Source: an uncultured Solirubrobacterales bacterium | Lineage (GTDB): Bacteria; Actinomycetota; Thermoleophilia; Solirubrobacterales; 70-9 | DNA length: 64,000 nucleotides | Assembly (NCBI GenBank): GCA_963718775.1 | Contig: OY970377.1 | Location: 418,578-482,577, forward strand | Direction: 5' to 3' | Part shown: piece by piece, positions 3,457-57,258 of the stretch | Layout of the letters: each line of letters starts with the position of its first letter | How positions within the stretch are numbered: position 1 is the first letter of the stretch | Made by a program: the position numbers and the translations under genes | The notes under the pieces: generated by a model | The model's input: only the letters and a program-made list of their open reading frames with translations | The model's database searches: none | What the model was told of the DNA's origin: nothing

Positions 3457-4619
3457 CCGGGCGAAAGCGACCCAGTCGTCCCCCAAGCAACTATGTCGCC
3501 GAGTGGTTCGGGCACATAGTCTGGCCCCCTGAGCAGATTGACGCCAGCCAGGAGGCGGTCCGCGATCAGGTGGAGGAGCGCTGTCCGTTCCTTTCAAGCG
3601 CCACGGCCTCCGACGTTCCCTGCATCAAGAAAATAAGCGCCGGCCCCTATCGGAGCGGCTTCTGCACCGCCAGCAGTCCCAGCACGGGCGTGCGAGAGGA
3701 CTGGCTGGCATGCCCCGCCAGGGTTTTTGATCAGCACTTCGCACTGATCCGCTCAGCGATCATTCACCTCTTTGAGGTTCCAAAGGGTGTGGAGTTTGAC
3801 GCCTACCCATTGACGCGCTTTGAGGATCCTGCGGTTCAAGCTCGGGTTCGTGAACTCGACGGCGGCAACGGTCCTCACCGTGTGTTCGCCTTTGCATCAA
3901 ACCCTCCCCTGCTCGGCGGAGAGATCGACATCCCGGAGACCGCCAGTTCACCTGGCAACAAGGTCGATGTCTCGATCTTCGAGATTCTACGAGTCGAAAA
4001 CGAGAAGCCAGTGCTCGGACGCTTCGCCATATTCGAGATTCAGACGGCTGATTTCCACGGCAGCCCCTTGCACGCAATCGGCGAGCTTCGGAGCCTCGGT
4101 CCGCCGACCGAGGATCGCGACTACCACGATGCGATAGCGGCAAATCCAGAGCTGCTTGGCAAGCGAGTCGAGGGACCAAACAAGGCGAACATCTTCAAGC
4201 GAACGATCTACCAGATGATTTTGAAGATTCAGATGGCCAAGGACCCCGGTTGCGCTGGATTCTGCGTTGTCTTGCCCGAGCCTGTCTGGCGTAGCTGGGA
4301 GCGGCACCTTGGCAGTCCGGCCCTGGTCGCTGACCCCGACCGACCTGGAGTCCTCCGCATGACGGCCCCAAGCGAGTCCCGGCACGTCGAGCCTCTGGTC
4401 GAGAAAGAGCCTGCCTGGATTCTTGTCTTCAAGATAGATCGGGAGTCAGCCGAGACGCCGCGCCCACTCGCGATCGTCAAGCAGATCGCGACCGATTCCC
4501 ACGCTCTGCTGCATCACGCCTTCGAGGAAGCTCCCCGCCATGCGATTGCTGAGGGTGCCCTCGAGCGATTCAGCTCCGCGTTCGAGCGCCGGCTCGGCGC
4601 GTACTGGAAGCGGAGCTGA
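3453..4619 (+). CDS. NotI-family type II restriction endonuclease
   Basis: 388 aa. From my memory of NotI these blocks match: NYVAEWFGHIVWP, a four-Cys cluster (CPFL...C...C...DWLACPARVFD), FEIQTADFHGS, EGPNKANIFKRTIYQM, WILVFK. Not confirmed by any search. Confidence 0.8.
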   Translation: MTGRKRPSRPPSNYVAEWFGHIVWPPEQIDASQEAVRDQVEERCPFLSSATASDVPCIKKISAGPYRSGFCTASSPSTGVREDWLACPARVFDQHFALIRSAIIHLFEVPKGVEFDAYPLTRFEDPAVQARVRELDGGNGPHRVFAFASNPPLLGGEIDIPETASSPGNKVDVSIFEILRVENEKPVLGRFAIFEIQTADFHGSPLHAIGELRSLGPPTEDRDYHDAIAANPELLGKRVEGPNKANIFKRTIYQMILKIQMAKDPGCAGFCVVLPEPVWRSWERHLGSPALVADPDRPGVLRMTAPSESRHVEPLVEKEPAWILVFKIDRESAETPRPLAIVKQIATDSHALLHHAFEEAPRHAIAEGALERFSSAFERRLGAYWKRS

Positions 4620-4915: not shown

Positions 4916-4989
4916 AGCGGCTGATGGGATTCGAACCCACGACCTTCTGCATGGCAAGCAGACGCTCTAGCCAGCTGAGCTACAGCCGC
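4916..4989 (-). tRNA. tRNA-Gly (anticodon GCC)
   Basis: Reverse complement is GCGGCTGTAGCTCAGCTGGCTAGAGCGTCTGCTTGCCATGCAGAAGGTCGTGGGTTCGAATCCCATCAGCCGCT. It folds as a cloverleaf: acceptor GCGGCTG/CAGCCGC, D stem GCTC/GAGC, anticodon stem TCTGC/GCAGA with loop TTGCCAT, T loop TTCGAAT, and C2:G71, G3:C70, U73. Confidence 0.85.
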
Positions 4990-10560: not shown

Positions 10561-10669
10561 GAAGGTCCCGGCAGGGGTGAAGCGTCTTGTACTTTTTCGC
10601 GGCTGTCCTTCGGGGACAGCAATCTCCGCTCCTCGAAAGAGTTAAGCGAAACCCCTGCCGGGAGCTTCC
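10561..10669 (+). repeat. Hairpin repeat family A, copy A1
   Basis: GGAAGGTCCCGGCAGGGG-TGAAGCGTCTTGTACTTTTTCG-apex-CGAAAGAGTTAAGCGAAA-CCCCTGCCGGGAGCTTCC. The 3' end abuts the TGA stop (10670..10672) of the minus-strand gene. Confidence 0.9.
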
Positions 10670-13629: not shown

Positions 13630-13745
13630 CTAGCGGGACTGGGCAGGGGTGAAGCGTCTTGTACTTTTTCGCGGCTTACGCTCGGGCGACAGCAATCCAG
13701 CGACCCTCGAAAAAGTTAAGCGGAACCCCTGCCCAGTCCCGCTAG
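13630..13745 (+). repeat. Hairpin repeat family A, copy A2
   Basis: Perfect 20-bp outer stem CTAGCGGGACTGGGCAGGGG / CCCCTGCCCAGTCCCGCTAG enclosing the conserved core. The 3' arm contains the ilvD stop codon (13742..13744). Confidence 0.9.
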
Positions 13746-22143: not shown

Positions 22144-22256
22144 AGCGGAATCCTGGTGGGGGTGAAGCGTCTTGTACTTTTTCGCGGCTCACCCTCGGGC
22201 GCCAGCGAAATTCCGCTTCTCGAAAAGTTAAGCGAAACCCCCGCCAGGATTCCGCT
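22144..22256 (+). repeat. Hairpin repeat family A, copy A3
   Basis: Arms are AGCGGAATCCTGGTGGGGG / CCCCCGCCAGGATTCCGCT around the conserved core. It starts one base after the trmD start codon (CAT at 22141..22143) and fills the KH-trmD spacer. Confidence 0.9.
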
Positions 22257-31488: not shown

Positions 31489-31601
31489 GAGGGAGTCGGG
31501 CACCCCTCCTCTCTCAACTTTTTCGCCTCCAGCGAGGCAGTTCTCGCTGAGGCATAGCGGCGAAAAAGTACAAGCCGTTCGGAGGGGTGCCCGACTCCCT
31601 C
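31489..31601 (-). repeat. Hairpin repeat subfamily B, copy B4
   Basis: Reverse complement is GAGGGAGTCGGGCACCCCTCC-GAACGGCTTGTACTTTTTCG-apex-CGAAAAAGTTGAGAGAGG-AGGGGTGCCCGACTCCCTC. Lies 27 nt upstream of the rpmF start. Confidence 0.9.
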
Positions 31602-32687: not shown

Positions 32688-32801
32688 GGAGGGACGGGCA
32701 CCCCTCCGAACGGCTTGTACTTTTTTCGGGCACCGGCCCAGGCGTCAGCCCTACCACACTACTTCGAAAAAAGTTGAGAGAGGAGGGGTGCCCGTCCCTC
32801 C
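32688..32801 (+). repeat. Hairpin repeat subfamily B, copy B5
   Basis: Perfect 20-bp outer stem GGAGGGACGGGCACCCCTCC / GGAGGGGTGCCCGTCCCTCC. The inner stem has 6 T paired to 6 A. It starts 12 nt after the yceD stop. Confidence 0.9.
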
Positions 32802-42375: not shown

Positions 42376-43710
42376 CGGCCGGCTCGCCCCCCTCGGCGGC
42401 GTCGCGCTCCTCCTCGTCGTGGATCATCTCCTCGTCGAGGGCGAGGCCCTGGTGGTGCAGCGAGTGGCCCATCTTGTCGCGCTTGGCCCGCAGGTAGGCC
42501 TCGTTGTGGGCGTTGGGCGAGGACTCGATCGGCACCTGCTCGCTGACCGAGAGGCCGTAGCCCTCGAGGCCGACGATCTTCTTCGGGTTGTTGGTGAGGA
42601 TGCGGATGCTGGTCAGGCCGAGGTCGCCGAGGATCTGGGCGCCGATCCCGTAGTCGCGCAGGTCGGCCGGCAGGCCGAGCTTGAGGTTGGCCTCGACCGT
42701 GTCGGCGCCCTCCTCCTGCAGCTTGTAGGCCTTGAGCTTGTTGAGCAGGCCGATCCCGCGCCCCTCCTGGGAGAGGTAGAGGAGGACGCCGCGGCCCTCC
42801 TGCTCGATCTGGGTCAGCGCCGCGACGAGTTGCTCGCCGCAGTCGCAGCGCATGCTGTGGAAGACGTCGCCGGTGAGGCACTCGCTGTGCACGCGGACCA
42901 GCACGTCCTCGACGCCGTCGACGTCGCCCTTGACCATCGCCACGTGGTGCTTGTCGTCGACCAGAGAGCGATAGCCGACCGCGGTGAAGTCGCCGAACTC
43001 GGTCGGCAGGGCAGTCGACGACGACCCGCTCGACCAGCTTCTCCTCGGTGCGGCGGCGGTAGGCGATCAGGTCGGCGACGGTGATCATCTTCAGGCCGTG
43101 GCGCTCGCAGTAGGGGACCAGGTCCGGGACCCGGGCCATCGTGCCGTCGTCGTTCATCACCTCGCAGATCACCCCGGCGGGCGTCAGGCCGGCGAGGCGG
43201 GCGAGGTCGACGCTGGCCTCGGTGTGGCCGGTGCGCTCGAGCACGCCGCCCTCCTTGGCCCGCAGCGGGAACATGTGACCGGGGACGACGATCTCACTCG
43301 GCCCGGAGCTGGGATCGATCGCGACCTGGATCGTGTGGGCGCGGTCGTGGGCGGAGATGCCGGTGCTGACGCCGCCGGCCGCCTCGATCGTCACCGTGAA
43401 GGCGGTCTGCAGCGGCGCCTCGTTCTTGGCCGCCATCAGCTTCAGGCCGAGCTTCTCGCAGCGTTCCGCGGTCAGCGCCAGGCAGATCAGGCCGCGCGCC
43501 TCCTTGGCCATGAAGTTGACCGCCTCGGGGGTGGCGAACTGCGCCGCCATCACCAGGTCGCCCTCGTTCTCGCGGTCCTCGCCGTCGCAGACGACGACCA
43601 TGCGGCCGCGCGCGGATCTCCTCGATCGCTTCCTCGATCGTCGAGAACGGGCTCTCGCCCGCTTCCCTGCTCGTCTCGTCTGTCCGTTGCGCCTCGGTCA
43701 TCTGGCTCAC
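42368..43710 (-). CDS. ribBA: Bifunctional DHBP synthase / GTP cyclohydrolase II; 2 frame changes
   Basis: 43294..43710 holds the start, 41856..43601 the DHBP synthase domain ([16 protein letters not shown]...) and 42368..42943 the GTP cyclohydrolase II domain ([21 protein letters not shown]). Confidence 0.9.
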
Positions 43711-44318
43711 GCCCGCTCCTCTCCGGCGAATGGCTTCGCCAGTCGCTCAACATACTTCGCCACCACATCGCACTCGACGTTCAAGCGGTCGCCGGTGGCG
43801 ACCCCACCAAGATTCGTGCGCTCCAGGGTCTCGGGGATCAGCGAGACCTCAACCCAGGAATCGGCCAGGTCGGCAGTCGTCAGGCTGACCCCACTAAGCG
43901 CAATCGAGCCCTTGTCGACCACGTAGCGCAGCAGCTTCGGATCCAGCTCCACGCGCAGACGCCTGGCAAGGCCGTCCTCCTCGACCGAAAGCACCTCTCC
44001 AACGCCGTCGGCGTGCCCCTGGACGATGTGGCCACCGAGCCGCTCCGATGCCTTCATCGCCAGCTCAAGGTTGACGCGGTCGCCACTTGCCAGATCCCCG
44101 ATGGCGGTGACCTGCAGTGTCTGGTTCATCGCGTCGGTCGCGAAACCGTTTGGGTCAACTGCCGTCGCGGTAAGGCAAACGCCGTTGACAGACACCGAGT
44201 CACCGGTCGCGATCTCGGGCGCCAAGCGGGTCCCGATCCGCAACCGCGCGCCGTCGTCGCCGGATTCAACCGACTCGACCCTGCCGACGTCTTCGACCAG
44301 CCCGGTGAACATCACCAC
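43707..44318 (-). CDS. ribE: Riboflavin synthase alpha chain
   Basis: Intact 203 aa with MFTGLVEDVG...SVSVNGVCLT...SIALSGVSLT. Confidence 0.9.
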   Translation of the reverse strand: MVMFTGLVEDVGRVESVESGDDGARLRIGTRLAPEIATGDSVSVNGVCLTATAVDPNGFATDAMNQTLQVTAIGDLASGDRVNLELAMKASERLGGHIVQGHADGVGEVLSVEEDGLARRLRVELDPKLLRYVVDKGSIALSGVSLTTADLADSWVEVSLIPETLERTNLGGVATGDRLNVECDVVAKYVERLAKPFAGEERA

Positions 44319-45505
44319 TCCCGGAACCGTGCCGTGATCAAAGCATCCATACCAACGGCCTTAACCGTGCTGCTCAATGCGGTTTCTCGCGCGGGTGGCG
44401 CAGATGCGGGGGGGCCGAGAACGGAGGCCCCGCCCCCGCCCGCAGATCCCCCCGCAGCTGCGACGGGCCCCGTGCGCCAATCACTTCCGAGCAGGACGGG
44501 GGCGACGAAGGTCCTTGCTTCGTCTAGCTGGTCGGCGATCTGGAAGGCGCTGGCCAGGGTCGGGCCGCCCTCGAGGAAGAGGCTCGTGATGCCGCGGCGG
44601 CCCAGATCGGCAAGGGCTGCCTCGATGCCGTCAGCGACGAGGATCTCGGCGCCGGCCTCACGAAGGGCTGATGCATCAGCTTCGGGTGAGACGACGACGA
44701 GCACCGGCGAGTCGTCGAGGGTTCGGAGCAGCTGCGAATCGAGCGGCAGACGGGCCTGGCGGTCGAAGACGACGCGAACCGGCTGCCGCGAGCTCGTTCC
44801 GGTGCGCTTTATGCTCGCCTGGGGTGCATAAGGCGCACCGGAAGGCTCTGGGCGGGCGGTTAGGAGGGGGTCGTCGGTTAGGACGGTGTCGATGCCGACG
44901 GCGATCGCGTCGGATTCGGCGCGCCAGCGGTGGACCAGCTCACGGCTGCGCTCGCCGGAGATCCAGGGCGAGTCGCCGGGCGGGGCGCTGGTGCGGCCGT
45001 CGAGCGACATCGCCAGCTTCAGGGTGACCAGCGGCAGGCCCGTGCGCGCATGCTTGCGGAAGGGCTGGTTGAGCAGGCGGGCCGCGGTGGCCTCCTCGCC
45101 TGCGGCGAGCTCGACCTCGACGCCGCCGTCGCGCAGGATGCCGGGCCCGCGCCCGGCCGCCTTCTCGCTCGGATCATCGGAAGCGATCACGACCCGGGCG
45201 ATTCCCGCCTCAAGGATCGCCTCGGTGCAGGGCGGTTGCCGCCCCGTATGCGCACAGGGCTCCAACGTCACGTACATCGTCGCCCCCGCCGGGTCCTCTC
45301 CACGCCTCTCGCAATCCGCCAGCGCCGCCCGCTCCGCATGCAGGCCACCCAGCTCGGCATGAAACCCCTCGCCGATCACCTCGCCGCCTCGCACCACAAC
45401 AGCTCCGACAAGAGGATTAGGACTGACCCGACCGCGCCCACCCTCCGCCAGCTCAAGCGCCCGCGCGAGATGCGACCGATCCGTGCCTGTCAGTTGCGCA
45501 TTCAT
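44312..45505 (-). CDS. ribD: Bifunctional riboflavin deaminase/reductase RibD, carrying two in-frame repeat insertions
   Basis: C-terminal part of chimeric track ORF 44312..46282, from MNAQLTGTDRSHLARALELAEGG...HAERAAL...TLEPCAHTGRQPPC.... The ATG is at 45505. Confidence 0.85.
   Translation of the reverse strand: MNAQLTGTDRSHLARALELAEGGRGRVSPNPLVGAVVVRGGEVIGEGFHAELGGLHAERAALADCERRGEDPAGATMYVTLEPCAHTGRQPPCTEAILEAGIARVVIASDDPSEKAAGRGPGILRDGGVEVELAAGEEATAARLLNQPFRKHARTGLPLVTLKLAMSLDGRTSAPPGDSPWISGERSRELVHRWRAESDAIAVGIDTVLTDDPLLTARPEPSGAPYAPQASIKRTGTSSRQPVRVVFDRQARLPLDSQLLRTLDDSPVLVVVSPEADASALREAGAEILVADGIEAALADLGRRGITSLFLEGGPTLASAFQIADQLDEARTFVAPVLLGSDWRTGPVAAAGGSAGGGGASVLGPPASAPPARETALSSTVKAVGMDALITARFREW
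44384..44455 (+). repeat. Repeat family R3, copy a (inside the ribD 3' coding region)
   Basis: TTCTCGCGCGGGTGGCGCAGATGCGGGGGGGCCGAGAACGGAGGCC...CCCGCAGATCCCC, shared with 45566..45670. Translated as ..GGSAGGGGASVLGPPASAPPARE... Confidence 0.7.
44799..44841 (-). repeat. Short palindromic element R1 inside the ribD coding sequence
   Basis: CCGGTGCGCTTTATGC-TCGCCTGGGGT-GCATAAGGCGCACCGG: a 16-bp stem with one G-T pair. The 21 nt GGTGCATAAGGCGCACCGGAA are identical to 51594..51614. Confidence 0.85.
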
Positions 45506-45565
45506 GCCACTGATTGACTGGTCAATCAACCAATCGTACAGCGCCTGCGCAGGGAGTCTGTGACG

Positions 45566-45670
45566 TTCCTCGCGCGGGTGGCGCGGGGAGGGGGCCGAGA
45601 ACGGACGCCGCGCGCGCCCGCAGGCCCCCTCCCCGTGACAGGACCCGCGCGCCGACCCCGCAGATACCCT
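45566..45670 (+). repeat. Repeat family R3, copy b (intergenic, between ribD and the glycosyltransferase)
   Basis: TTCCTCGCGCGGGTGGCGCGGGGAGGGGGCCGAGAACGGACGCC...GGCCCCCTCCCC...CCCCGCAGATACCC. Same orientation as copy a, with extra internal sequence. Confidence 0.7.
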
Positions 45671-45684
45671 GACCCGCGCCCCCA

Positions 45685-46674
45685 ATGAAGCTGATCGTCC
45701 AAATCCCCTGCCTGAACGAGGAGTCCACCCTCCCCGCGACGATCGCCGACATCCCGCGGCAGATCGACGGGCATCGACACGGTCGAGCTGCTGGTCGTCG
45801 ACGACGGCTCGACCGACCGCACGGTCGAGGTCGCCCGCGAGAACGGCGTCGAGCACATCGTCCGCCTGACCAACAACAAGGGCCTGGCGGCCGGCTTCCA
45901 GGCGGGGCTCGACGCCTGCCTCAAGCTCGGCGCCGACGTCGTCGTCAACACCGACGCCGACAACCAGTACCGCGGCGCCGACATCCCGAAGCTGCTGGCG
46001 CCGATCCTCGCCGGCGAGGCCGACATGGTCGTCGGCGATCGCCAGGTCGACCAGATCGAGCACTTCTCGGGCCAGAAGAAAGCCCTGCAGCGACTCGGCA
46101 GCTGGGTCGTGCGACGGCTCTCCGGCACCGAGATCGCCGACACCACCTCCGGCTTCCGCGCCTACAACCGCGAGGCGGCGCTGGGCCTGCTCGTCGTCGA
46201 CAACTTCACCTACACGCTGGAGAGCCTGATCCAGGCCGGCAAGATGCTGGTCGCGGTCGGACCAGGTCGAGATCGGCGTCAACCCGCAGACTCGCGAGTC
46301 GCGGCTCTTCGCTTCGACCGGCGGCTACGTGCGCCGCAACGCGCTCTCGATCCTGCGCATCTACGCGCGCTACGAGCCGCTGCGCGTCTTCGCCACGGCC
46401 GGCCTCGTCGTCGCGCTGCTCGCCCTCGCCGCCTGGCTGCCCTTCCTGCTCGACTGGATCCTCAACGGCGACAGCACCGGCCACCTGCAGTCGCTGATCC
46501 TCGGCGCGGTGCTCTTCATCGTCGCGATCCAGCTGCTCGCCCTGGGCGTGATCGGCGACCTGCTTGGCCGGGCAGCGGGTGATGACGCAACGGGTCTTCG
46601 AGCGCGTGCGCCGGGTCGAGCTGGCGCTCGACGTGCCGCCCTCGCACTACGAGCGCGGCGCTCCGGACCGCTGA
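45685..46674 (+). CDS. GT2-family glycosyltransferase; at least 2 frame changes
   Basis: [24 protein letters not shown].. is on 45685..46497. ..[10 protein letters not shown].., ..TDADNQY.. and DMVVGDRQV...[11 protein letters not shown] are on 46025..46582. The C-terminal transmembrane part is on 46329..47303. The stop overlaps the next ATG (46672..46676). Confidence 0.8.
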
Positions 46675-48082
46675 TGCAGGCGCTGCGCAAGGCGCTGGGC
46701 GCCCGCCGTGGCGGCCAGGCGGGCGCCAGCTCGGCGACCGCCGACTACGGCAAGACGGCGAGCTTCCTGGCGATCGGCGTCGGCCTCACCGGGGTGATCA
46801 CCTACGTCTACTTCTTCATCGCCTCGCACGTGCTCTCCAAGCCCGACTACGGCGAGATCACCGTCGTCTGGTCGGCCGTCTTCATCACGATCTCGACCCT
46901 CTACCGGCCGGTCGAACAGCTGCTCTCCCGCCACATCTCCGAACACCTGGTCAAGGGCGAGGAGATCGGCGGCACGACGCGCAACGCGGCGACGATCCAG
47001 CTCGGCCTGGCGCTGCTCTTCGCGGTCCTCGCCCTGGCCTTTCGCGGGCCGCTGCAGGACGGCCTGCTCGAGGGCAACGAAACGCTCTACTGGGTCTACT
47101 TCTCGGCGGTCCTCTTCTACGCGGCGAGCTACTTCGCCCGCGGCTATCCTCGCCGGCGTCAAGCGCTTCGGGCTCTTCACCGCGCTGATCCTCTCCGAGT
47201 CCTGCTTCCGCACGCTCTTCGCCGTCCTCGTCGCGGTCAGCCTGCTCGAGCGGCCAGTCCTGGGTGGCGATCGGCATCGTCGCCGCGCCCTCGCTCTCCC
47301 TGATGGTCGTGCCGCTGGCCTTCGCCCGCGGCGCGCGGACGGCGCCGGCAGCGCCCCAGGCCGCCAGCCAGGACTCGTCTGTCTCGGTCGCCCACGGCAG
47401 CGGCTTCGCGGCTGCCGTGCTGGTGATCATGTTCAGCGAACAGGCCTTCCTCAACGCCGGGCCGCTGGTCGTGCGCGCCCTCGACGGCGCCGCTGCGGCC
47501 GGCTTCATCTTCAACGTGCTGATGCTGGCGCGGGCGCCGCTGCAGCTCTTCCAGGCGGTCTCGACCAGCATCCTCCCCCACCTGACCGGCCTGCACACCA
47601 GCGATGAGCCCGGCAGCGAGGACGAGTTCCATCGCTCGGTGCGGGCGGTGCTGCTCGGCATCGTCGCCTTCACGGCGGTGATGGCGCTGGCGATCCTCGC
47701 CGCCGGCCCGCAGCTGATGCAGCTCGCCTTCAGCGACAAGTTCAGCTACGAGCGCGGCGAACTGCTCTTGGTCGCCCTCGGCACCGGGCTCTACCTCGCC
47801 TCGGTGACGGTCAACCAGGCCTGCGTCGCCCAGGGCCAGGTGCGCCGCGCCGCGAGCCGCTGGATCGCCTGCGCCGCCCTCTTCATCGGCTGGAACTTCG
47901 TGCCCCTGGTCAACGACGAGTTCCTCCGCGTCGAGATCGGCTTCACGCTGACCGCCGGCGTGCTCTTCGGCCTGCTCTACCTGATCTACCGCCGCCCCCA
48001 CGAACGTGCCGAGGACGTGCCGGCGCCGGGCTCTGCCGAGGAACTCGAGCTGCGCCTCGCCGCGATGGACGAGAACACCTAG
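46674..48082 (+). CDS. Polytopic membrane protein, oligosaccharide flippase (MOP/Wzx-like) candidate; frameshifted
   Basis: Runs from MQALRKALG... within 46329..47303 and continues on 47264..48082. It has many hydrophobic segments. The family call rests on topology and context only. Confidence 0.55.
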
Positions 48083-48085
48083 GCG

Positions 48086-49884
48086 ATGGGAGGACACGAC
48101 GCCGAGCTGATCCTCGTCGCCGGCGCCCTGCTCGCCGCCGGCATCCTCGGCGCCCTGCTCGCCGATCGCATCCGCATCCCGGGACTGCTGCTCTTCCTCG
48201 GCCTGGGCATGCTTGCCGGCTCGGAGGGAATCGGCGGAATCGAGTTCGACGACGTCGAGCTGGCCCGGACCCTGGGCACGATCGCGCTCGTCCTCATCCT
48301 CTTCGAGGGCGGTCTGACGGCGGGCTGGTCGGAGATCCGCCCGGTGCTCGGCACGGCCGCCTCGCTGGCGACGATCGGGACCGCGGTAACCGCCTGCACG
48401 GCCGGGCTCGTCGCCCACTGGATCTTCGGCATCAGCGTGCTGGAAGGGATGATCGTCGGCGCCGCGATCGCCGCCACCGACTCGGCGGCGATCTTCGCCG
48501 TGCTGCGTCGCTCGACCCTGAAAAAGACGGCTGGCGCGGACGCTGGAGGGTGAGTCGGGGATGAACGACCCGGTCGCCCTGCTGCTCGTGATCGGCTTCA
48601 TCGAATGGATCCAGGAGCCCGGCTTCGGGCTCGCCGACATGGCCGGACTGCTCGCCCTCAAACTGGCGATCGGCGCCGTGATCGGCCTGGCGCTGGGCCG
48701 CCTCGCCGTGATCGCCCTCGACCGGGCGCGGCTGCCGACCGACGGGATCTACCCGGTCGCGACGATCGCGATCGCCGGGCTCGCCTTCGGCCTGGCCGAG
48801 GTCGCCCACGGCTCGGGATTCCTCGCCGTCTACCTCACCGCCCTCGCCCTCGGCTCGACCCGCATCCCGGCGCGGCGCACGATCGTCGCCTTCCACGAGG
48901 GCGTCGGCTGGGTCGCCCAGATCGGCCTCTTCATCCTGCTCGGCCTGCTCGTCTTCCCCAGCACGCTCGGCGACGTCGCCTGGGAAAGCCTCGCCCTCTC
49001 GGCCGTGCTGATCGTCCTCGCCCGCCCCCTCGCCGCCTTCGTCGCCACTGCCCTCTCCCCGCTCGACGTCCGCGAGCGGGCGATGCTGGGCTGGGCTGGG
49101 CTGCGCGGCGCGACGCCGATCTGGCTCGCCACCTTTCCGGTCGTCGCCGGCGTGGGCAGCGGCGAAGAGCTGTTCGCGATCGTCTTCTTCGTCGTCGTCA
49201 CCTCGACCCTGATCCAGGGGGCGAGCTTCGAGCCGCTGGCCAGCCGCCTCGGCCTGACCACCGACGAGCCGGCGCTGCCGCGGCGCCTGCTCGAGTCGGG
49301 GCGAATCCGCCGCATGGGCGGCGACGTCGTCTCCTACCGACTGCGCCCGGGGGCGGCGGCGGCCGGTCACCTGGTCCGCGAACTCGGCCTGCCGCGCGAG
49401 GCGCTGGTCAACGTGATCGTCCGCGACGGACACGCGATCCCGCCGCGCGGCTCGACCGAGGTGCGCGAGGGCGACGAGCTGCACATCCTCGTCCGCGGCG
49501 AGCTGCGCGAGGAGGTCGAGGAGCTGACCAAGCGCTGGCACGATGGGCCGATCGGCATTCCGACCCCGGAGCGCCTGCCGCCGCGCGGCGCGCCACAGAT
49601 CTTCTCGGTGGGGCCGGCGATCGAGATCGAGGACCCCTCCGCGCCTGGCGCCGTCGACGGGATCGCGGTGGTCGCCATCCTGCGCAGCCGCCGCGACCAC
49701 CCCAGCGCCCTGGTCGCGCTTGCCGACAGTCGCTACGCCCTGGTCACCGAGACCGTGGTGGCACTCGGCGATCGTCGCTCAGTGGCCCGTTGGTGCGAGC
49801 GCCGCGCCGAACGAGCCGGCAGACGACCCAGCGGAGCGCGCCTGGTGGCAGGAGGTAATTGGTGCGCTGATGGCGCGGGGTTGA
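48086..49884 (+). CDS. CPA1-type K+/Na+:H+ antiporter with a C-terminal TrkA-C domain; frameshifted
   Basis: 48086..48553 holds the N-terminal transmembranes, 48561..50663 (first ~430 aa: ...GESGMNDPVALLL..., TrkA-C ...GDELHILV...) the middle, and 49543..49884 the last codons ...AERAWWQEVIGALMARG. Confidence 0.8.
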
Positions 49885-49885
49885 G

Positions 49886-49995
49886 GTCTGCCCCGGCAGG
49901 GACTCCGCATAACTTTTTCGAGAGGCGGGGATTGCTGGCGCCCGATGGTGCGGCCGCGAAAAAGTACAAGACGCTCCGCCCCCGCCGGGGCGACC
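49886..49995 (-). repeat. Hairpin repeat family A, copy A6
   Basis: Reverse complement is GGTCGCCCCGGCGGGGG-CGGAGCGTCTTGTACTTTTTCG-apex-CGAAAAAGTTATGCGGAGT-CCCTGCCGGGGCAGACC. It fills the spacer between the antiporter stop (49884) and the rpe stop (49996). Confidence 0.9.
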
Positions 49996-50685
49996 TCAAG
50001 CAGCGCCGGCCGCGGCGACGATCTCTGCGTAGGCGGAAGCGGGGTCGTCGGTGTCGAAGATGGCTGAGCCGGCGACGAAGAGGGATGCACCGGCGTCCGC
50101 GACCGTGCCGGCGGTCTTGGTGTCGATGCCGCCGTCGACCTCGATCTTGGCCTTGCCGGCGCCGCGACTTCAGGCGTGAGACCTTGTCGGGTGAGCTCTC
50201 GATGAAAGCCTGGCCGCCCCAGCCGGGGTTGACGGTCATGCAAAGGACGATGTCGGCGAGGTCGCGCAGCTCGGCGAGGGTCTCGACCGGGGTGCCGGGG
50301 TTGAGCGCGATCCCCGCCAGACAGCCGAGCTCACGGATCGCGGCAAGGGTGCGGTTGGCGTGCGGCGTCGCCTCCTCGATGGAAGGTGATCGAGTCGGCG
50401 CCGGCCTCGGCGAAGGCCTCGATCTGGCGTTCGGGCTGCTCGATCATCAGGTGGACGTCGAGGACGCCGCCGGCATCGTGGACCTGGTCGGCGATCGACG
50501 CGGCGACCAGCGGCCCGATCGTGATCGGCGGCACGAAATGCCCGTCCATCACGTCGAAGTGGATGACCCGCGCGCCGGCATCCATCACCTCGGCGATCTG
50601 CGCGCCCAGCCGGCGAGCAGTCGGCCGAGAGGATCGAAGGCGCGACGCGCGGCGAAGCGATGACCTCCTGCATCCGCTCGCTCAT
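49996..50685 (-). CDS. rpe: Ribulose-phosphate 3-epimerase; at least 3 frame changes
   Basis: Pieces lie on 50236..50781 (..VAPSILSAD), 50331..50588 (..HFDVMDGHFVPPITIGP...DVHLM...) and 49733..50239 (MTVNPGWGGQAF..). The C-terminus ..VDGGI...VAGSAIF.. is in a further frame. Confidence 0.85.
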
Positions 50686-50933
50686 ACCGGCCTCATCATC
50701 GAGTCCCCGCAGGTTTGACAGGTCATGTCCTCGGTGGTGCTCATCCGCGCGATCGTCTGGTGCTCGCCGCAGTTGGGGCACTGCGAGACGAGCTCGAAGC
50801 GGCGCAGACAGTACACGCAGCGAAAGCGGCCCGGCAGCTGCGTCGGGCGCAGCCAGGGCTCACCGCAACCAGGGCAGGCCGCCCGGCGCAGGACGCTCTC
50901 GCTCTCTCCCGCCTCACTCATCGCCAGCATCAT
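50682..50933 (-). CDS. Small zinc-ribbon protein with four CxxC pairs; hypothetical
   Basis: 83 aa with CPGCG...CVYC...CPNCG...CQTCG. It overlaps the rsmB stop region and the rpe start by a few nt, which suggests translational coupling. Confidence 0.5.
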   Translation of the reverse strand: MMLAMSEAGESESVLRRAACPGCGEPWLRPTQLPGRFRCVYCLRRFELVSQCPNCGEHQTIARMSTTEDMTCQTCGDSMMRPV

Positions 50934-52251
50934 CGCGCCTCAGGCGGCAGATGAAGAAGCCGGTGGTGCGATCGCGATCCGGACGGAGCTGAAAACGCTC
51001 TCCGCCGTCGACTTGCTCCTCGTTCTCCCGGGCGCTGATCGTGCAGGTCGAGTAGACGAGCGTGCCGCCCGGTCGGAGCGCCGCCCTCGCCCTTTGGAGG
51101 AGTTGGGCCTGGACCTCGACCAGGCGGTCGATGGTGGCCGGCGACTTGCGCCAGCGCGCGTCGGGGCGCGAGGCGAGGGCGCCCAGGTCGGAGCAGGGGG
51201 CGTCGAGGAGGACCCGGTCGAAGCCGGGGGCCATGCCCGGTTGCGCGGCATCGGTCTCGATCACGGTGACGCTGCGCAGGCCGAGGCGACGAGCCTGATC
51301 CGCGACTTCGGCGGCACGCTCGGGGTCGTTCTCCACCGAGATCACCTCGCCGCGGTCGCCCATCCGAGCGGCGATCTGGCCGGTCTTGATGCCGGGGCCG
51401 GCGCAGAGATCGAGGATGTGCTCGCCGGGCTGGGGGTCGAGGACCTCGACCACCGCGGCCGATCCCCGGCTCTGCGGAGTCAGCTCGCCAGCAGCGATCA
51501 GCTCCGGCACGAGGTCGCCGGTCCGCCCCTCGATCGCGATCATCTCCGGCAGCGCCAGCACCCCCTCGCTTGCAGTGCGCCTTTTGCTCCCGGTGGGTGC
51601 ATAAGGCGCACCGGAACCAGCGGCGCGGGCGTCGATGCCGGCGTCGCGCAGCTTGGCGAGGATGGAGTCGCGGTCGGTGCGCAGGGTGTTGACGCGGAAG
51701 GCGACCTCGGGCGGCTCGTTGCAGGCGGCGAGCAGGGAGCGGGCCTGCTCGGGCCCCAGCTCGTCCCACCACATCTGCGCCAGCCAGAGCGGCGCCGAGT
51801 GGGCGACGGCGGCTGCCTGCGGGGTCGAGTCGTCGCCGAGCAGCGACTCGACCAACGAGGCGCGCTCGCGGGTCGCCCGGCGCAGGACGGCGTTGACCAG
51901 GCCGGCGGCATGCGCGGCGCCGGCCTGCTTGACCAGCTCCACCGCCTGGTCGACCGCGGCGTGGTCGGGGGTCCCGTCGGCGAAGAGCAGCTCGTACATG
52001 CCCAGCCGCAAGGCTCCCAGCAGCGGCGGGTCGAGATCGCGCAGCGGCCGGTCGACCAGCTGCGAGAGCGCCGCGTCGATCGTGCCGCGGCGCTGCACCG
52101 TGCCGTAGGCGAGCCGCTGCGCCTGGGCCCGCTCGCGAGCGTCGAGCGCACGCTCGTCGGCGGCTTCGCGGAAGGCGCGCTCGGTGTGGGCCTCTTCCTC
52201 GAAGGTCGCCCGGATCGTCTCGTAGGCGAGGGTGCGAGCCGGAGCAATCAT
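50914..52251 (-). CDS. rsmB: 16S rRNA (cytosine967-C5)-methyltransferase RsmB, carrying the R2 in-frame insertion
   Basis: Intact 445 aa with a NusB-like N-terminal domain, then ..LDLCAGPGIKT...DRVLLDAPCSDLG...GGTLVYSTCT. Confidence 0.9.
   Translation of the reverse strand: MIAPARTLAYETIRATFEEEAHTERAFREAADERALDARERAQAQRLAYGTVQRRGTIDAALSQLVDRPLRDLDPPLLGALRLGMYELLFADGTPDHAAVDQAVELVKQAGAAHAAGLVNAVLRRATRERASLVESLLGDDSTPQAAAVAHSAPLWLAQMWWDELGPEQARSLLAACNEPPEVAFRVNTLRTDRDSILAKLRDAGIDARAAGSGAPYAPTGSKRRTASEGVLALPEMIAIEGRTGDLVPELIAAGELTPQSRGSAAVVEVLDPQPGEHILDLCAGPGIKTGQIAARMGDRGEVISVENDPERAAEVADQARRLGLRSVTVIETDAAQPGMAPGFDRVLLDAPCSDLGALASRPDARWRKSPATIDRLVEVQAQLLQRARAALRPGGTLVYSTCTISARENEEQVDGGERFQLRPDRDRTTGFFICRLRRDDAGDE
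51575..51614 (-). repeat. Short palindromic element R2 inside the rsmB coding sequence
   Basis: GTGCGCCTTTTGC-TCCCGGTGGGT-GCATAAGGCGCACCGG. Homologous to R1 and translated in the same element frame (SGAPYAPTGSKRRTAS). Confidence 0.85.
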
Positions 52252-52262
52252 GACAATGGATC

Positions 52263-52318
52263 GCGTTCAAATCGCCACGGATTCGAACCCCCGGAAGTCA
52301 CCGTGTCGATTTGAACGC
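52263..52318 (-). repeat. Hairpin repeat family D, copy D1
   Basis: GCGTTCAAATCGCCACGG-ATTCGAACCCCCGGAAGTCA-CCGTGTCGATTTGAACGC. It ends one base before the fmt stop codon (52319..52321). Confidence 0.8.
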
Positions 52319-53226
52319 TCACAGTTTCGGCAGCTGGTGGCCGCGCAGGTAGGCGTCTGCCGCCATCGACTTGCCACCGGCCGGCTGCACCACCTCGAGC
52401 CGCAGGGCGCCCCGGCCGCAGCCGAGCAGCAGCGCCCCCCACTCGGCGCGCACCTCGCCGGCCTTGACGCCGACATCGACCGCGCGCGCTCGCCGCACCC
52501 CCAGCCGCTCGCCGCCGCTGGTCTCCAGATAGGCGCCAACGTGCGGAGTCAGCGCACGGACGATGCGGGCCAGCTCGACCGCCGGCCGCTTGGGGTCGAG
52601 GCGGCGCTCCAGCGAGGCGATCTTCTCCGCGTAGGTGGCCTCCGCATCGTCCTGCTCGACGAAATCGAGTCGCCCCTCGGCCAGCAGGTCGAATGCCCGC
52701 ACCAGCAGCTCGCCGCCGAGCGTGGCCAGACTGCGCGGCAAGCGCTTCGAAGTCTTCCTCGGAGCCGATCGGCAGCTCCTCGCGGAGAGCGACCGGCCCG
52801 GAGTCGAGGCCCTCGGTCAGCTTCATCACGCAGACGCCCGGTGCGCTCGTCGCCGGCCATGATCGCCCGCTCGATCGGCGCCGCGCCGCGCCAGCGGGGC
52901 AGCAGCGATGGGTGGATGTTGAGCATCGGCCACTCCGAGAGCAGCGGCTCGCGGATCATCTGGCCGAAGGCGCAGACCGCGAGCGCCTGTGGCTGGACGG
53001 CGCGGATCTGCTCGAGCGCCGCCTCGTCGTTGACGTTCTCGGCCTGCAGCAGGTCGATCCCCAGCTCGGCGGCGGCCTCGGCGGCGGGTGGCGCCTGGGT
53101 GCGGCGCCCGCGGCCCTTGGGGCGATCGGGGGGCGTGACGACCAGCAGCGGCCTGTGCGCCGACTCGGCCAGCTGGCGCAGCACCGCCGCGGCGAACTCC
53201 GAGGTGCCGAGGTAGACCGTCCTCAC
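52319..53226 (-). CDS. fmt: Methionyl-tRNA formyltransferase; 2 frame changes
   Basis: 52549..53625 (VRTVYLGTSEFAA...NIHPSLLPRWRGAAPIERAIMAGDERTG), then 52248..52829, then 52319..52741 (C-terminal domain). Confidence 0.85.
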
Positions 53227-53242
53227 GCGTCGCACTGTGGGC

Positions 53243-53294
53243 GCGTCAATCGACACGGTGACTGCCGGGTATTCGAGTCCGTGGCGATTGACGT
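53243..53294 (+). repeat. Hairpin repeat family D, copy D2
   Basis: GCGTCAATCGACACGG-TGACTGCCGGGTATTCGAGT-CCGTGGCGATTGACGT. It is the inverted counterpart of D1 on the other side of fmt. Confidence 0.8.
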
Positions 53295-53324
53295 GTTCAC
53301 GCTGTGCTCTTCGGCTCACGATGC

Positions 53325-53936
53325 TCAGCGTCGGCATCGTCCTGCTCGTCCAGCGGCGGGCTGTAGCTGCTCGCCCTCGCGCAGGGCCCGCAGGGCGCCC
53401 TTGCGCTGCGCGCGCGGCGCGCGGTCGAGGATCAGCACGCCGTCGAGATGGTCGAGCTCGTGCTGGAGCACTCGCGCCTCCAGGCCCGAGGCCTCGATCT
53501 GCACCGGCTCGCCGTCGACGTCCAGCCCGCTGAAGCGGGCATGCAGGGGGCGCTCGACGTCCATCGAGACCCGCGGCAGGCTGAGGCAGCCCTCCTCGGC
53601 GACGACGATCTCGTCGGAGAGCCACTCGACCTCCGGGTTGACCAGCGCCGTCGGCTCGCTGTCGGGGCCCGCCTGGAAGACGAGCAGGCGGCGCAGCACG
53701 CCGACCTGGGTCGCGGCCAGGCCGACGCCCATGGCGCCGCGCATGATCCCGATCATGCGCTCTACCTCGGCGCGCAGCTCGGGGCCGAACTCGCCGACCG
53801 GCGAGGCCTTGCTCTTCAGCACCGGATCGCCGAACTTGACCACCTGCGCAAGCGCCGCTTCGCGGCGCTCCAGCAGCTCGGCTTCGAGCCCGCTCTCGTC
53901 GCGCTCGTCGGTTTCAGTTTCGGCGTGCTCGCTCAC
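53325..53936 (-). CDS. def: Peptide deformylase; extreme C-terminus possibly frame-shifted
   Basis: GVGLAATQVG...EEGCLSLP...QHELDHLDG metal-binding motifs. Has an acidic N-terminal extension. Confidence 0.9.
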   Translation of the reverse strand: MSEHAETETDERDESGLEAELLERREAALAQVVKFGDPVLKSKASPVGEFGPELRAEVERMIGIMRGAMGVGLAATQVGVLRRLLVFQAGPDSEPTALVNPEVEWLSDEIVVAEEGCLSLPRVSMDVERPLHARFSGLDVDGEPVQIEASGLEARVLQHELDHLDGVLILDRAPRAQRKGALRALREGEQLQPAAGRAGRCRR

Positions 53937-56785: not shown

Positions 56786-56900
56786 GGCGGGATCCGGGTG
56801 GGGGTTTCGCTTAACTTTTTCGAGGATCGTCGATTGCTGACGCCTCGGGCGAGCTGCCGCGAAAAAGTACAAGACGCTTCACCCCCACCCGGATCCCGCC
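56786..56900 (-). repeat. Hairpin repeat family A, copy A7
   Basis: Perfect 19-bp outer stem GGCGGGATCCGGGTGGGGG / CCCCCACCCGGATCCCGCC around the conserved core, in reverse orientation. Confidence 0.9.
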
Positions 56901-57141: not shown

Positions 57142-57258
57142 GGCGGGGACGGGGTAGGGGTGAAACGTCTTGTACTTTTTGGCGGAAGCTCAATCGAGGC
57201 GCCAGCTATCCGGCGATCCTCCAAAAAGTTAAGTGGAACCCCTGCCCCCGTCCCCGCC
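57142..57258 (+). repeat. Hairpin repeat family A, copy A8
   Basis: GGCGGGGACGGGGTAGGGG-TGAAACGTCTTGTACTTTTTGG-apex-CCAAAAAGTTAAGTGGAA-CCCCTGCCCCCGTCCCCGCC. The inner stem carries a compensated CG-to-GG/CC change. The 3' arm touches the metK stop codon. Confidence 0.9.

Follow-up and report, generated by a model that had tools for sequence, protein, structure and literature searches.

A dispersed 47-nt hairpin repeat inserted in frame in ribD and rsmB of uncultured Solirubrobacterales

Introduction

How did the same palindromic sequence come to lie in frame within two unrelated housekeeping genes, and what has been conserved there since? The question was raised by ribD and rsmB in a 64-kb stretch of DNA, referred to here as the window, which was analyzed over its whole length. 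The host organisms are uncultured Solirubrobacterales soil bacteria, and both genes are essential. The original prediction described one palindromic element shared by the two genes and named the palindromic elements of Rickettsia (RPEs) as the best-known parallel, a comparison that proved apt with regard to how the element works.

In-frame intragenic palindromic repeats are already known, in the form of RPEs and some ERIC, BOX and MITE copies (PMC10969869). RPEs are palindromic elements of approximately 100-150 bp (Ogata et al. 2000, as summarised in PMC10969869), while ERIC, BOX, Correia and other MITEs sometimes lie inside ORFs and contribute coding sequence (PMC10969869). A search of the literature on such repeats in Solirubrobacterales returned nothing; the original prediction was made with no such case known from a high-GC actinobacterial-type genome. 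We considered it highly probable that a dispersed hairpin repeat, with both RPE-like and REP-like traits, inserted in frame into permissive loops and has been preserved there as a hairpin.

Two related hairpins in the window

The first hairpin, R1 (44797..44843, minus strand), lies in ribD (44312..45505, minus strand), which encodes a bifunctional deaminase/reductase of 397 aa. It spans 47 nt with 18 of 20 stem positions paired, and its mRNA strand reads TTCCGGTGCGCCTTATGCACC-CCAGG-CGAGCATAAAGCGCACCGGAA. The second, R2 (51570..51616, minus strand), is also 47 nt long, encodes SGAPYAPTGSKRRTA and lies in rsmB (50914..52251, minus strand), the gene for the 16S rRNA m5C967 methyltransferase (445 aa); its core (51575-51611) has 15 of 17 positions paired. 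The palindromic character and the two host genes were therefore as predicted, but the element is 47 rather than about 42 nt long, and the stems are slightly longer than the 13-16 bp first proposed. Both copies are in frame, as claimed; the letters originally quoted are those of the antisense strand, because ribD and rsmB are both on the minus strand.

The two hairpins are homologous. The 21-mer GGTGCATAAGGCGCACCGGAA is identical in R1 and R2, and the 17-mer GGTGCATAAGGCGCACC has two exact occurrences in the window, at 44823 and 51596. When up to three mismatches were allowed, the 17-mer gave five matches in the window against 0.10 expected from shuffles, with none of 100 shuffles reaching five; four of the five were the two arms each of R1 and R2. 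A hairpin scan of the entire window found no others with a stem of at least 14 bp. Folding of the mRNA strand yielded -34.9 kcal/mol (z = -7.4) for R1 and -33.0 kcal/mol (z = -4.1) for R2, and on both strands folding was far better than that of shuffled controls. A fuzzy search of the 64 kb returned R1 and R2, both genic, as the family members present, with no intergenic copy.

A dispersed repeat family

Further copies were sought by scanning one genome per species for the 17-mer, which gave at least 113 stretches. Among the matches listed, approximately 60 were full hairpins, several per genome, and their hosts were uncultured Solirubrobacterales MAGs together with one bin labelled Chloroflexota; the other listed matches (Neisseria and others) consisted of the 17-mer alone inside an unrelated conserved gene. 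A fuzzy search raised the count to at least 72 copies in 63 loci among the matches listed. R1 and R2 are thus two copies of a dispersed 47-nt hairpin-repeat family, designated family A, which is one of several hairpin families that share an architecture within a clade of uncultured Solirubrobacterales with small genomes. Since dozens of copies occur in other genomes, local gene conversion between ribD and rsmB and a chance match were both ruled out as the source of the similarity. Strict within-genome concerted evolution was also rejected: the ribD and rsmB copies of locus L114 are different subfamily variants, and L142 carries a family-C copy in ribD but a family-A copy in rsmB.

Most family-A copies were intergenic by a simple ORF and GC3 test. 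Twenty-eight of 69 non-genic copies lay no more than 15 nt after a stop codon, and further copies stood just 5' of a ribosome-binding site and start codon, as judged from crude gene calls in the fetched loci (GC3 and ORF rules) that missed some real genes, ribD among them. Family-A copies were shared at orthologous positions across MAGs.

The family consensus is TTCCGGTGCGCCTT[A/T]TGC..loop..GCATAAGGCGCACCGGAA, or in fuller form TTCCGGTGCGCCTT[A/T]TGC[A/T]C-loop-G[T/A]GCA[T/A]AAGGCGCACCGGAA. It comprises a basal stem (TTCCGGTGCGCC/GGCGCACCGGAA), a TT/AA middle, and an apical stem and loop that vary. An alignment of 84 distinct copies had a nearly invariant basal stem and an invariant TT/AA step, with the variation in the apical stem and loop. 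Paired cells made up 88.5% of the alignment, and 10 pairs had changed on both sides, yielding a covariation score of 0.098 versus 0.078 in shuffles (reached by 0 of 500).

Host loops and encoded peptides

The RibD insert comprises 21 codons (PEPSGAPYAPQASIKRTGTSS; 44789..44851, minus strand) between the conserved TAR and RQP codons, and the translation reads ...DDPLLTAR-PEPSGAPYAPQASIKRTGTSS-RQPVRVVFD..., placing it directly after DDPLLTAR as originally reported. Approximately 51 nt were added, empty-site orthologues having 4-5 codons at this place. Across R2, RsmB reads ...GIDARAAGSGAPYAPTGSKRRTASEGVLALPE..., the host frame giving ...ARAAGSGAPYAPTGSKRRTASEGVLALPE.... The claim that similar peptides were added in one element frame agreed with both translations.

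Both insertion sites are permissive surface loops, as was suspected from the variable linkers of homologues. The AlphaFold model of RibD was too poor for mapping (mean pLDDT 50.5), and PDB sequence alignment with HMMER was used instead. The E. coli and Klebsiella enzymes (2o7p, 8dq9) have an equally long natural loop with which the insert aligns gap-free, and Acinetobacter RibD (3zpc) is 11 residues shorter at the insert point. For RsmB, residues 213-233 correspond to the insert and are modelled as coil with pLDDT values under 50; they lie between two strands and just after the well-predicted NusB-like domain, in line with the insert's proposed position beyond that domain.

Two further genes, pheT and one for an AMP-binding acyl-CoA synthetase (both Pfam-confirmed), hold the same element in frame, and rsmB orthologues of other MAGs also have the insert. 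Every in-frame copy uses the same element frame, giving S-G-A-P-Y-A-P ... K-(R/K)-R-T-G. When the consensus was read in its three frames, one contained TAA, the second was open and encoded a Cys-rich, hydrophobic peptide (FRCALCT..VHKAHR), and the third was the frame observed. The restriction to a single frame fits survival of the least harmful insertions alone. In approximately 200 orthologues, the inserts examined were always a multiple of 3 nt and stop-free in the host frame, and this retention of open reading frames suggests that they are translated as loop extensions; insert-spanning peptides would then include SGAPYAPQASIK or SGAPYAPTGSK.

Alternatively, the 47 nt might go untranslated through ribosome bypass or excision from the mRNA, in the manner of the T4 gene 60 gap and the mitochondrial 'byp' inserts. 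The family-A inserts resemble these in size (about 50 nt) and in forming a strong hairpin within coding sequence. Bypass inserts, however, carry stop codons or frame breaks and matched take-off and landing codons, whereas the family-A inserts keep the host frame open in every case. A bypassed segment would be free of both the frame and the multiple-of-three constraints, so the uniform length rule and the convergence of independent insertions on one benign frame each count against bypass, which we regard as exceedingly improbable.

Two minor features of the ribD locus were noted. Near the C-terminus of RibD, approximately residues 345-376 (window 44375-44470) form a second segment specific to the lineage, with many Gly, Ala and Pro residues; a hairpin scan indicated that it is apparently not hairpin-derived, and relatives of 364-367 aa are without approximately 35 residues there. 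Upstream of ribD, window 45506-45700 contained no FMN riboswitch or other Rfam family.

Polarity and age of the insertions

Orthologues of both genes were compared to establish which state came first. RibD was surveyed in 80 metagenome loci and in 120 homologues from databases. Most relatives at 74-82% identity had the insert in the same place, and deeper relatives had a 4-5-residue linker, TAR-(I/V)(D/E)GA-RQP. The RsmB insert was present in 113 of 120 relatives (77-88% identity), the empty site, A-RxP-(E/D)xxWPLAAPE, occurring in the other seven and in all deeper loci. Because the sites are empty in deeper orthologues, the insertions are lineage-specific, and the added peptide was absent from those orthologues of both proteins. 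The insertions are old, being common to most relatives at 74-88% identity. In a single-gene neighbor-joining tree of ribD, filled and empty sites were intermixed.

Comparison of filled and empty ribD sites revealed no convincing target-site duplication or target motif beyond a GCCCGC direct repeat inherent to the TAR/AR codons. Nor was a conserved flank or a target-site duplication visible in approximately 70 family-A copies.

Conservation of the hairpin

Codon positions within the stems indicated what has been conserved. In 17 family-A orthologues of ribD, stem third positions had an identity of 0.90, against 0.52-0.69 in the flanks; in rsmB the values were 0.92 and 0.67-0.73 (Mann-Whitney p = 0.004). 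Second positions behaved in the opposite manner, with stem identities of 0.71 (ribD) and 0.73 (rsmB) and flanking identities of 0.79-0.90 and 0.92-0.96. Within the stems, codon position 3 was the most conserved and position 2 the least. Third-position GC in the stems was 0.51 (ribD) and 0.47 (rsmB), and the flanking GC3 of ribD was 0.84-0.91. This pattern is the reverse of that expected under protein-level selection and places the constraint on the nucleic acid; the conserved entity is the hairpin and not the peptide.

These results also bear on a different explanation, in which SGAPYAP..KRRTG would be a protein motif, either ancestral or selected convergently, and the DNA similarity would be secondary. 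In favor of such a motif, all in-frame copies share a frame and encode similar peptides. However, the peptide is absent from deeper orthologues, the same DNA is mostly intergenic, the codon-position pattern runs the wrong way, and the peptides diverge freely while pairing is kept. An ancestral motif was rejected on the empty sites and the codon positions, and the protein-motif explanation as a whole was judged very improbable.

Pairing at the ribD locus has outlasted the sequence that forms it. All inserts there fold into a strong hairpin (-26 to -63 kcal/mol), even those with very different stems (families A, B, E and F). In 24 orthologues, a distance of exactly 43 nt separates the symmetry axis from the end of the RQPx codon. 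These hairpins keep 16-24 of 24 Watson-Crick pairs, and most stem positions show two to four types of pair; the TT/AA step 10-11 nt from the axis is invariant in all 24. Loci of intermediate sequence, L176 among them, link family A to family B. The fixed-axis ribD hairpins are best explained as one old insertion that evolved in place with compensatory changes.

A separate observation was made at the rsmB insertion site of L115, where a hairpin of quite different sequence (CGCGGGCTGCATCCGGGCCCTATAGGGGCGCCGATGCAGCACGCG; 3788-3832) parallels the ribD case in that the sequence has turned over while the pairing has been retained.

Proposed spread and retention of the element

The dispersed copies lead us to infer that the family-A element spreads, or once spread, by a copying mechanism. 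Surviving copies would be those that do little harm, after stop codons, in leaders before start codons and occasionally in genes. Survival of a genic copy would require landing in a permissive surface loop, an addition that is a multiple of three, and a frame without stops whose peptide is small and hydrophilic (SGAPYAP..KRRTG). The ribD and rsmB insertions would have occurred in the ancestor of the clade, the hairpin being preserved since then by selection on the nucleic acid, by self-correction of the palindrome, or by both.

No transposase was found; a tblastn search for RAYT across 1.7 Mb of fragments yielded nothing at E < 1, which is a weak test. In L018 (5765-6769), two family-A hairpins 958 nt apart bracket a low-GC gene (58-65%) with AbiEi_4 and a REase_MTES_1575/DUF559 nuclease-like domain, a locus with orthologues in L057, L068 and L069. 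The bracketing recalls RAYT genes flanked by REPs, but it may be a coincidence.

The retention of the hairpin is compatible both with nucleotide-level selection, acting on a functional signal in DNA or RNA, and with neutral self-correction of the palindrome. Under the first, the hairpin would be a cis-element, either a DNA site to which a host protein binds or an RNA processing or stability signal (such as an RNase III-type substrate), under purifying selection even within coding sequence and with the peptide as a by-product. This would complement, rather than exclude, the explanation of the hairpin as a dispersed repeat that inserted into permissive loops. It is favored by the stem third positions, which are more conserved than the flanks and AT-rich relative to their GC3, by the invariant TT/AA step, by the retention of pairing through sequence turnover, and by the persistence of copies at orthologous intergenic positions across MAGs. 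The near-invariance of the basal-stem sequence across species, in particular, argues for recognition by a sequence-specific factor.

Other observations speak against a cis-element. Orientation relative to the upstream gene was unbiased (8 against 6), and no U-tract follows the hairpin, observations that make a classical terminator, or an RNA role tied to one strand, less likely. A canonical Rho-independent terminator was rejected outright: the T and A runs lie inside the stem (CCTT..AAGG), and the flanks are GC-rich and contain no T-run. Moreover, the ribD copy was lost or never present in many lineages with no visible consequence. Rfam 15 had no relevant match to the hairpins at E ≤ 1 within 43000-53500 and none at the gathering score window-wide, the sole Rfam match in the window being a tRNA (4916-4989). 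A functional cis-element was held as a tentative explanation. Equally tentative is its more specific form, a sequence- and structure-specific signal that might be recognized by a protein, host- or element-encoded, or might act in the mRNA, under purifying selection within essential genes. The RibD and RsmB loops would in that case be long-term carriers of a non-coding element, and permissive loops such as the TAR|RQP loop of RibD would be recurrent landing sites for a hairpin superfamily in Solirubrobacterales.

Imperfect palindromes tend toward perfect ones through template switching. Such switching, or gene conversion between arms or among copies, could transfer changes from one arm to the other and so maintain the palindrome without selection, yielding apparent compensatory evolution as well as sequence homogeneity. 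Compensatory double changes are equally frequent in intergenic and genic copies, near-perfect stems are common, and the absence of orientation bias is consistent with a process of this kind. Acting alone, however, self-correction leaves unexplained why the basal stem keeps its sequence identity, and not just its pairing, across species and loci. It also does not account for the fixed A·A or T·T mismatches at columns 15/33 and 19/29, which roughly half of the copies have kept. Retention without selection was held to be as tentative an explanation as a functional cis-element.

Comparison with known repeat systems

Like the RPEs, family A is a palindromic family found both in intergenic sequence and inside unrelated housekeeping genes, and its old, vertically inherited in-frame insertions add peptide where the fold tolerates it. 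The palindrome is repeated several times per MAG and lies in frame in four kinds of gene (ribD, rsmB, pheT and the AMP-binding synthetase gene), with the frames open. Unlike the RPEs, which belong to AT-rich, obligately intracellular Alphaproteobacteria, family A is a 47-nt GC-rich hairpin of high-GC, free-living Actinomycetota; no sequence relationship between the two is known, and size and host set family A apart from the elements summarised in PMC10969869. In family A, moreover, it is seen directly that the hairpin and not the peptide is conserved. The original interpretation as in-frame palindromic insertions was thus upheld, with the amendments that the insertions are old, that the family is mostly extragenic, and that conservation acts on the hairpin.

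Because it is mainly extragenic, family A is also REP-like. As described for REPs and REPINs (PMC3116915, PMC5581495), it consists of short, GC-rich, imperfect palindromes that form hairpins, lie mostly outside genes and near gene 3' ends, have a high copy number (tens per genome in REP/REPIN systems), fall into several sequence families per lineage and persist at orthologous positions through vertical inheritance. REPIN-RAYT systems are likewise long-lived and vertically inherited (PMC3116915, PMC5581495); Actinobacteria are not mentioned in those papers on RAYTs. Unlike REPs, family A lacks GTAG/CTAC at the 5' end, its consensus starting with TTCCGGTG, and it has in-frame genic copies, whereas REPs are extragenic almost by definition. 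With intragenic MITEs it shares the character of a small non-autonomous repeat that is sometimes coding. MITEs, however, are longer, with terminal inverted repeats round an internal region and usually target-site duplications, while the family-A element is wholly one hairpin with no visible duplication.

In-frame colonization of housekeeping proteins, best known from Rickettsia, is also seen here in free-living high-GC actinobacteria, from an order with hardly any representatives outside metagenomes, and the element responsible is much smaller. The codon-position and fixed-axis evidence for hairpin conservation inside coding sequence adds interest. With so many orthologues, a single insertion can be traced through deep divergence, an unusually clean natural experiment in which it becomes testable whether repeats are kept by selection or by palindrome self-repair, and how new loop segments enter proteins. 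For annotation, the inserts and associated hairpin families account for differences in length among Solirubrobacterales genes and for their unusual AT-rich codons.

Other hairpin families and repeats

The ribD loop has received more than family A. Family C (L132, L142) and family D (L133, L158) also occupy it; their axes differ, and additional copies exist elsewhere, of family C at L142 20724 and of D-like sequences in L027 and L050. The two are therefore likely to be independent insertions into the same loop, which would then have been taken by at least two hairpin families other than family A. In L129 (772-930), ribD carries two tandem in-frame hairpins of subfamily A2 (TCCGCTGTTCC...), giving PSSAVPLPRIPGEKNSAS...GSAVPLPRMEGQKRSG. 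Many further hairpin families of approximately 45 nt and the same architecture were present in the contigs examined.

In L142, the family-A hairpin of rsmB (2875-2921) lies approximately 20 codons upstream of the usual site, and approximately 20 residues, the strand-helix segment after FRVN, have been lost as well.

A second, unrelated intergenic repeat family, GGGGTGAAGCGTCTTGTACTTTTTCGCGGC..., has at least eight occurrences in the window. It lies on the plus strand at 10563-10641, 13635-13713, 22148-22226 and 57146-57185, and is inverted at 49953-49989 and 56856-56899, with related cores at 31563-31593 and 32695-32725. The repeat does not form a hairpin and has no Rfam match; it may belong to another class of repeats or serve as a motif in promoters or leaders.

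Many metagenome contigs carry two other hairpin families downstream of ribD, at orthologous intergenic sites lying approximately 10 kb and 3-4 kb from the gene (L126 20931, L137 20570, L153 16230 and L161 20075; L126 14309, L130 14388, L144 14428 and others). Both families have a conserved basal stem (CGGCGTTCGTCC.. and CCCTCGCCCTCCT..) and an apical stem in which the changes are fully compensated.
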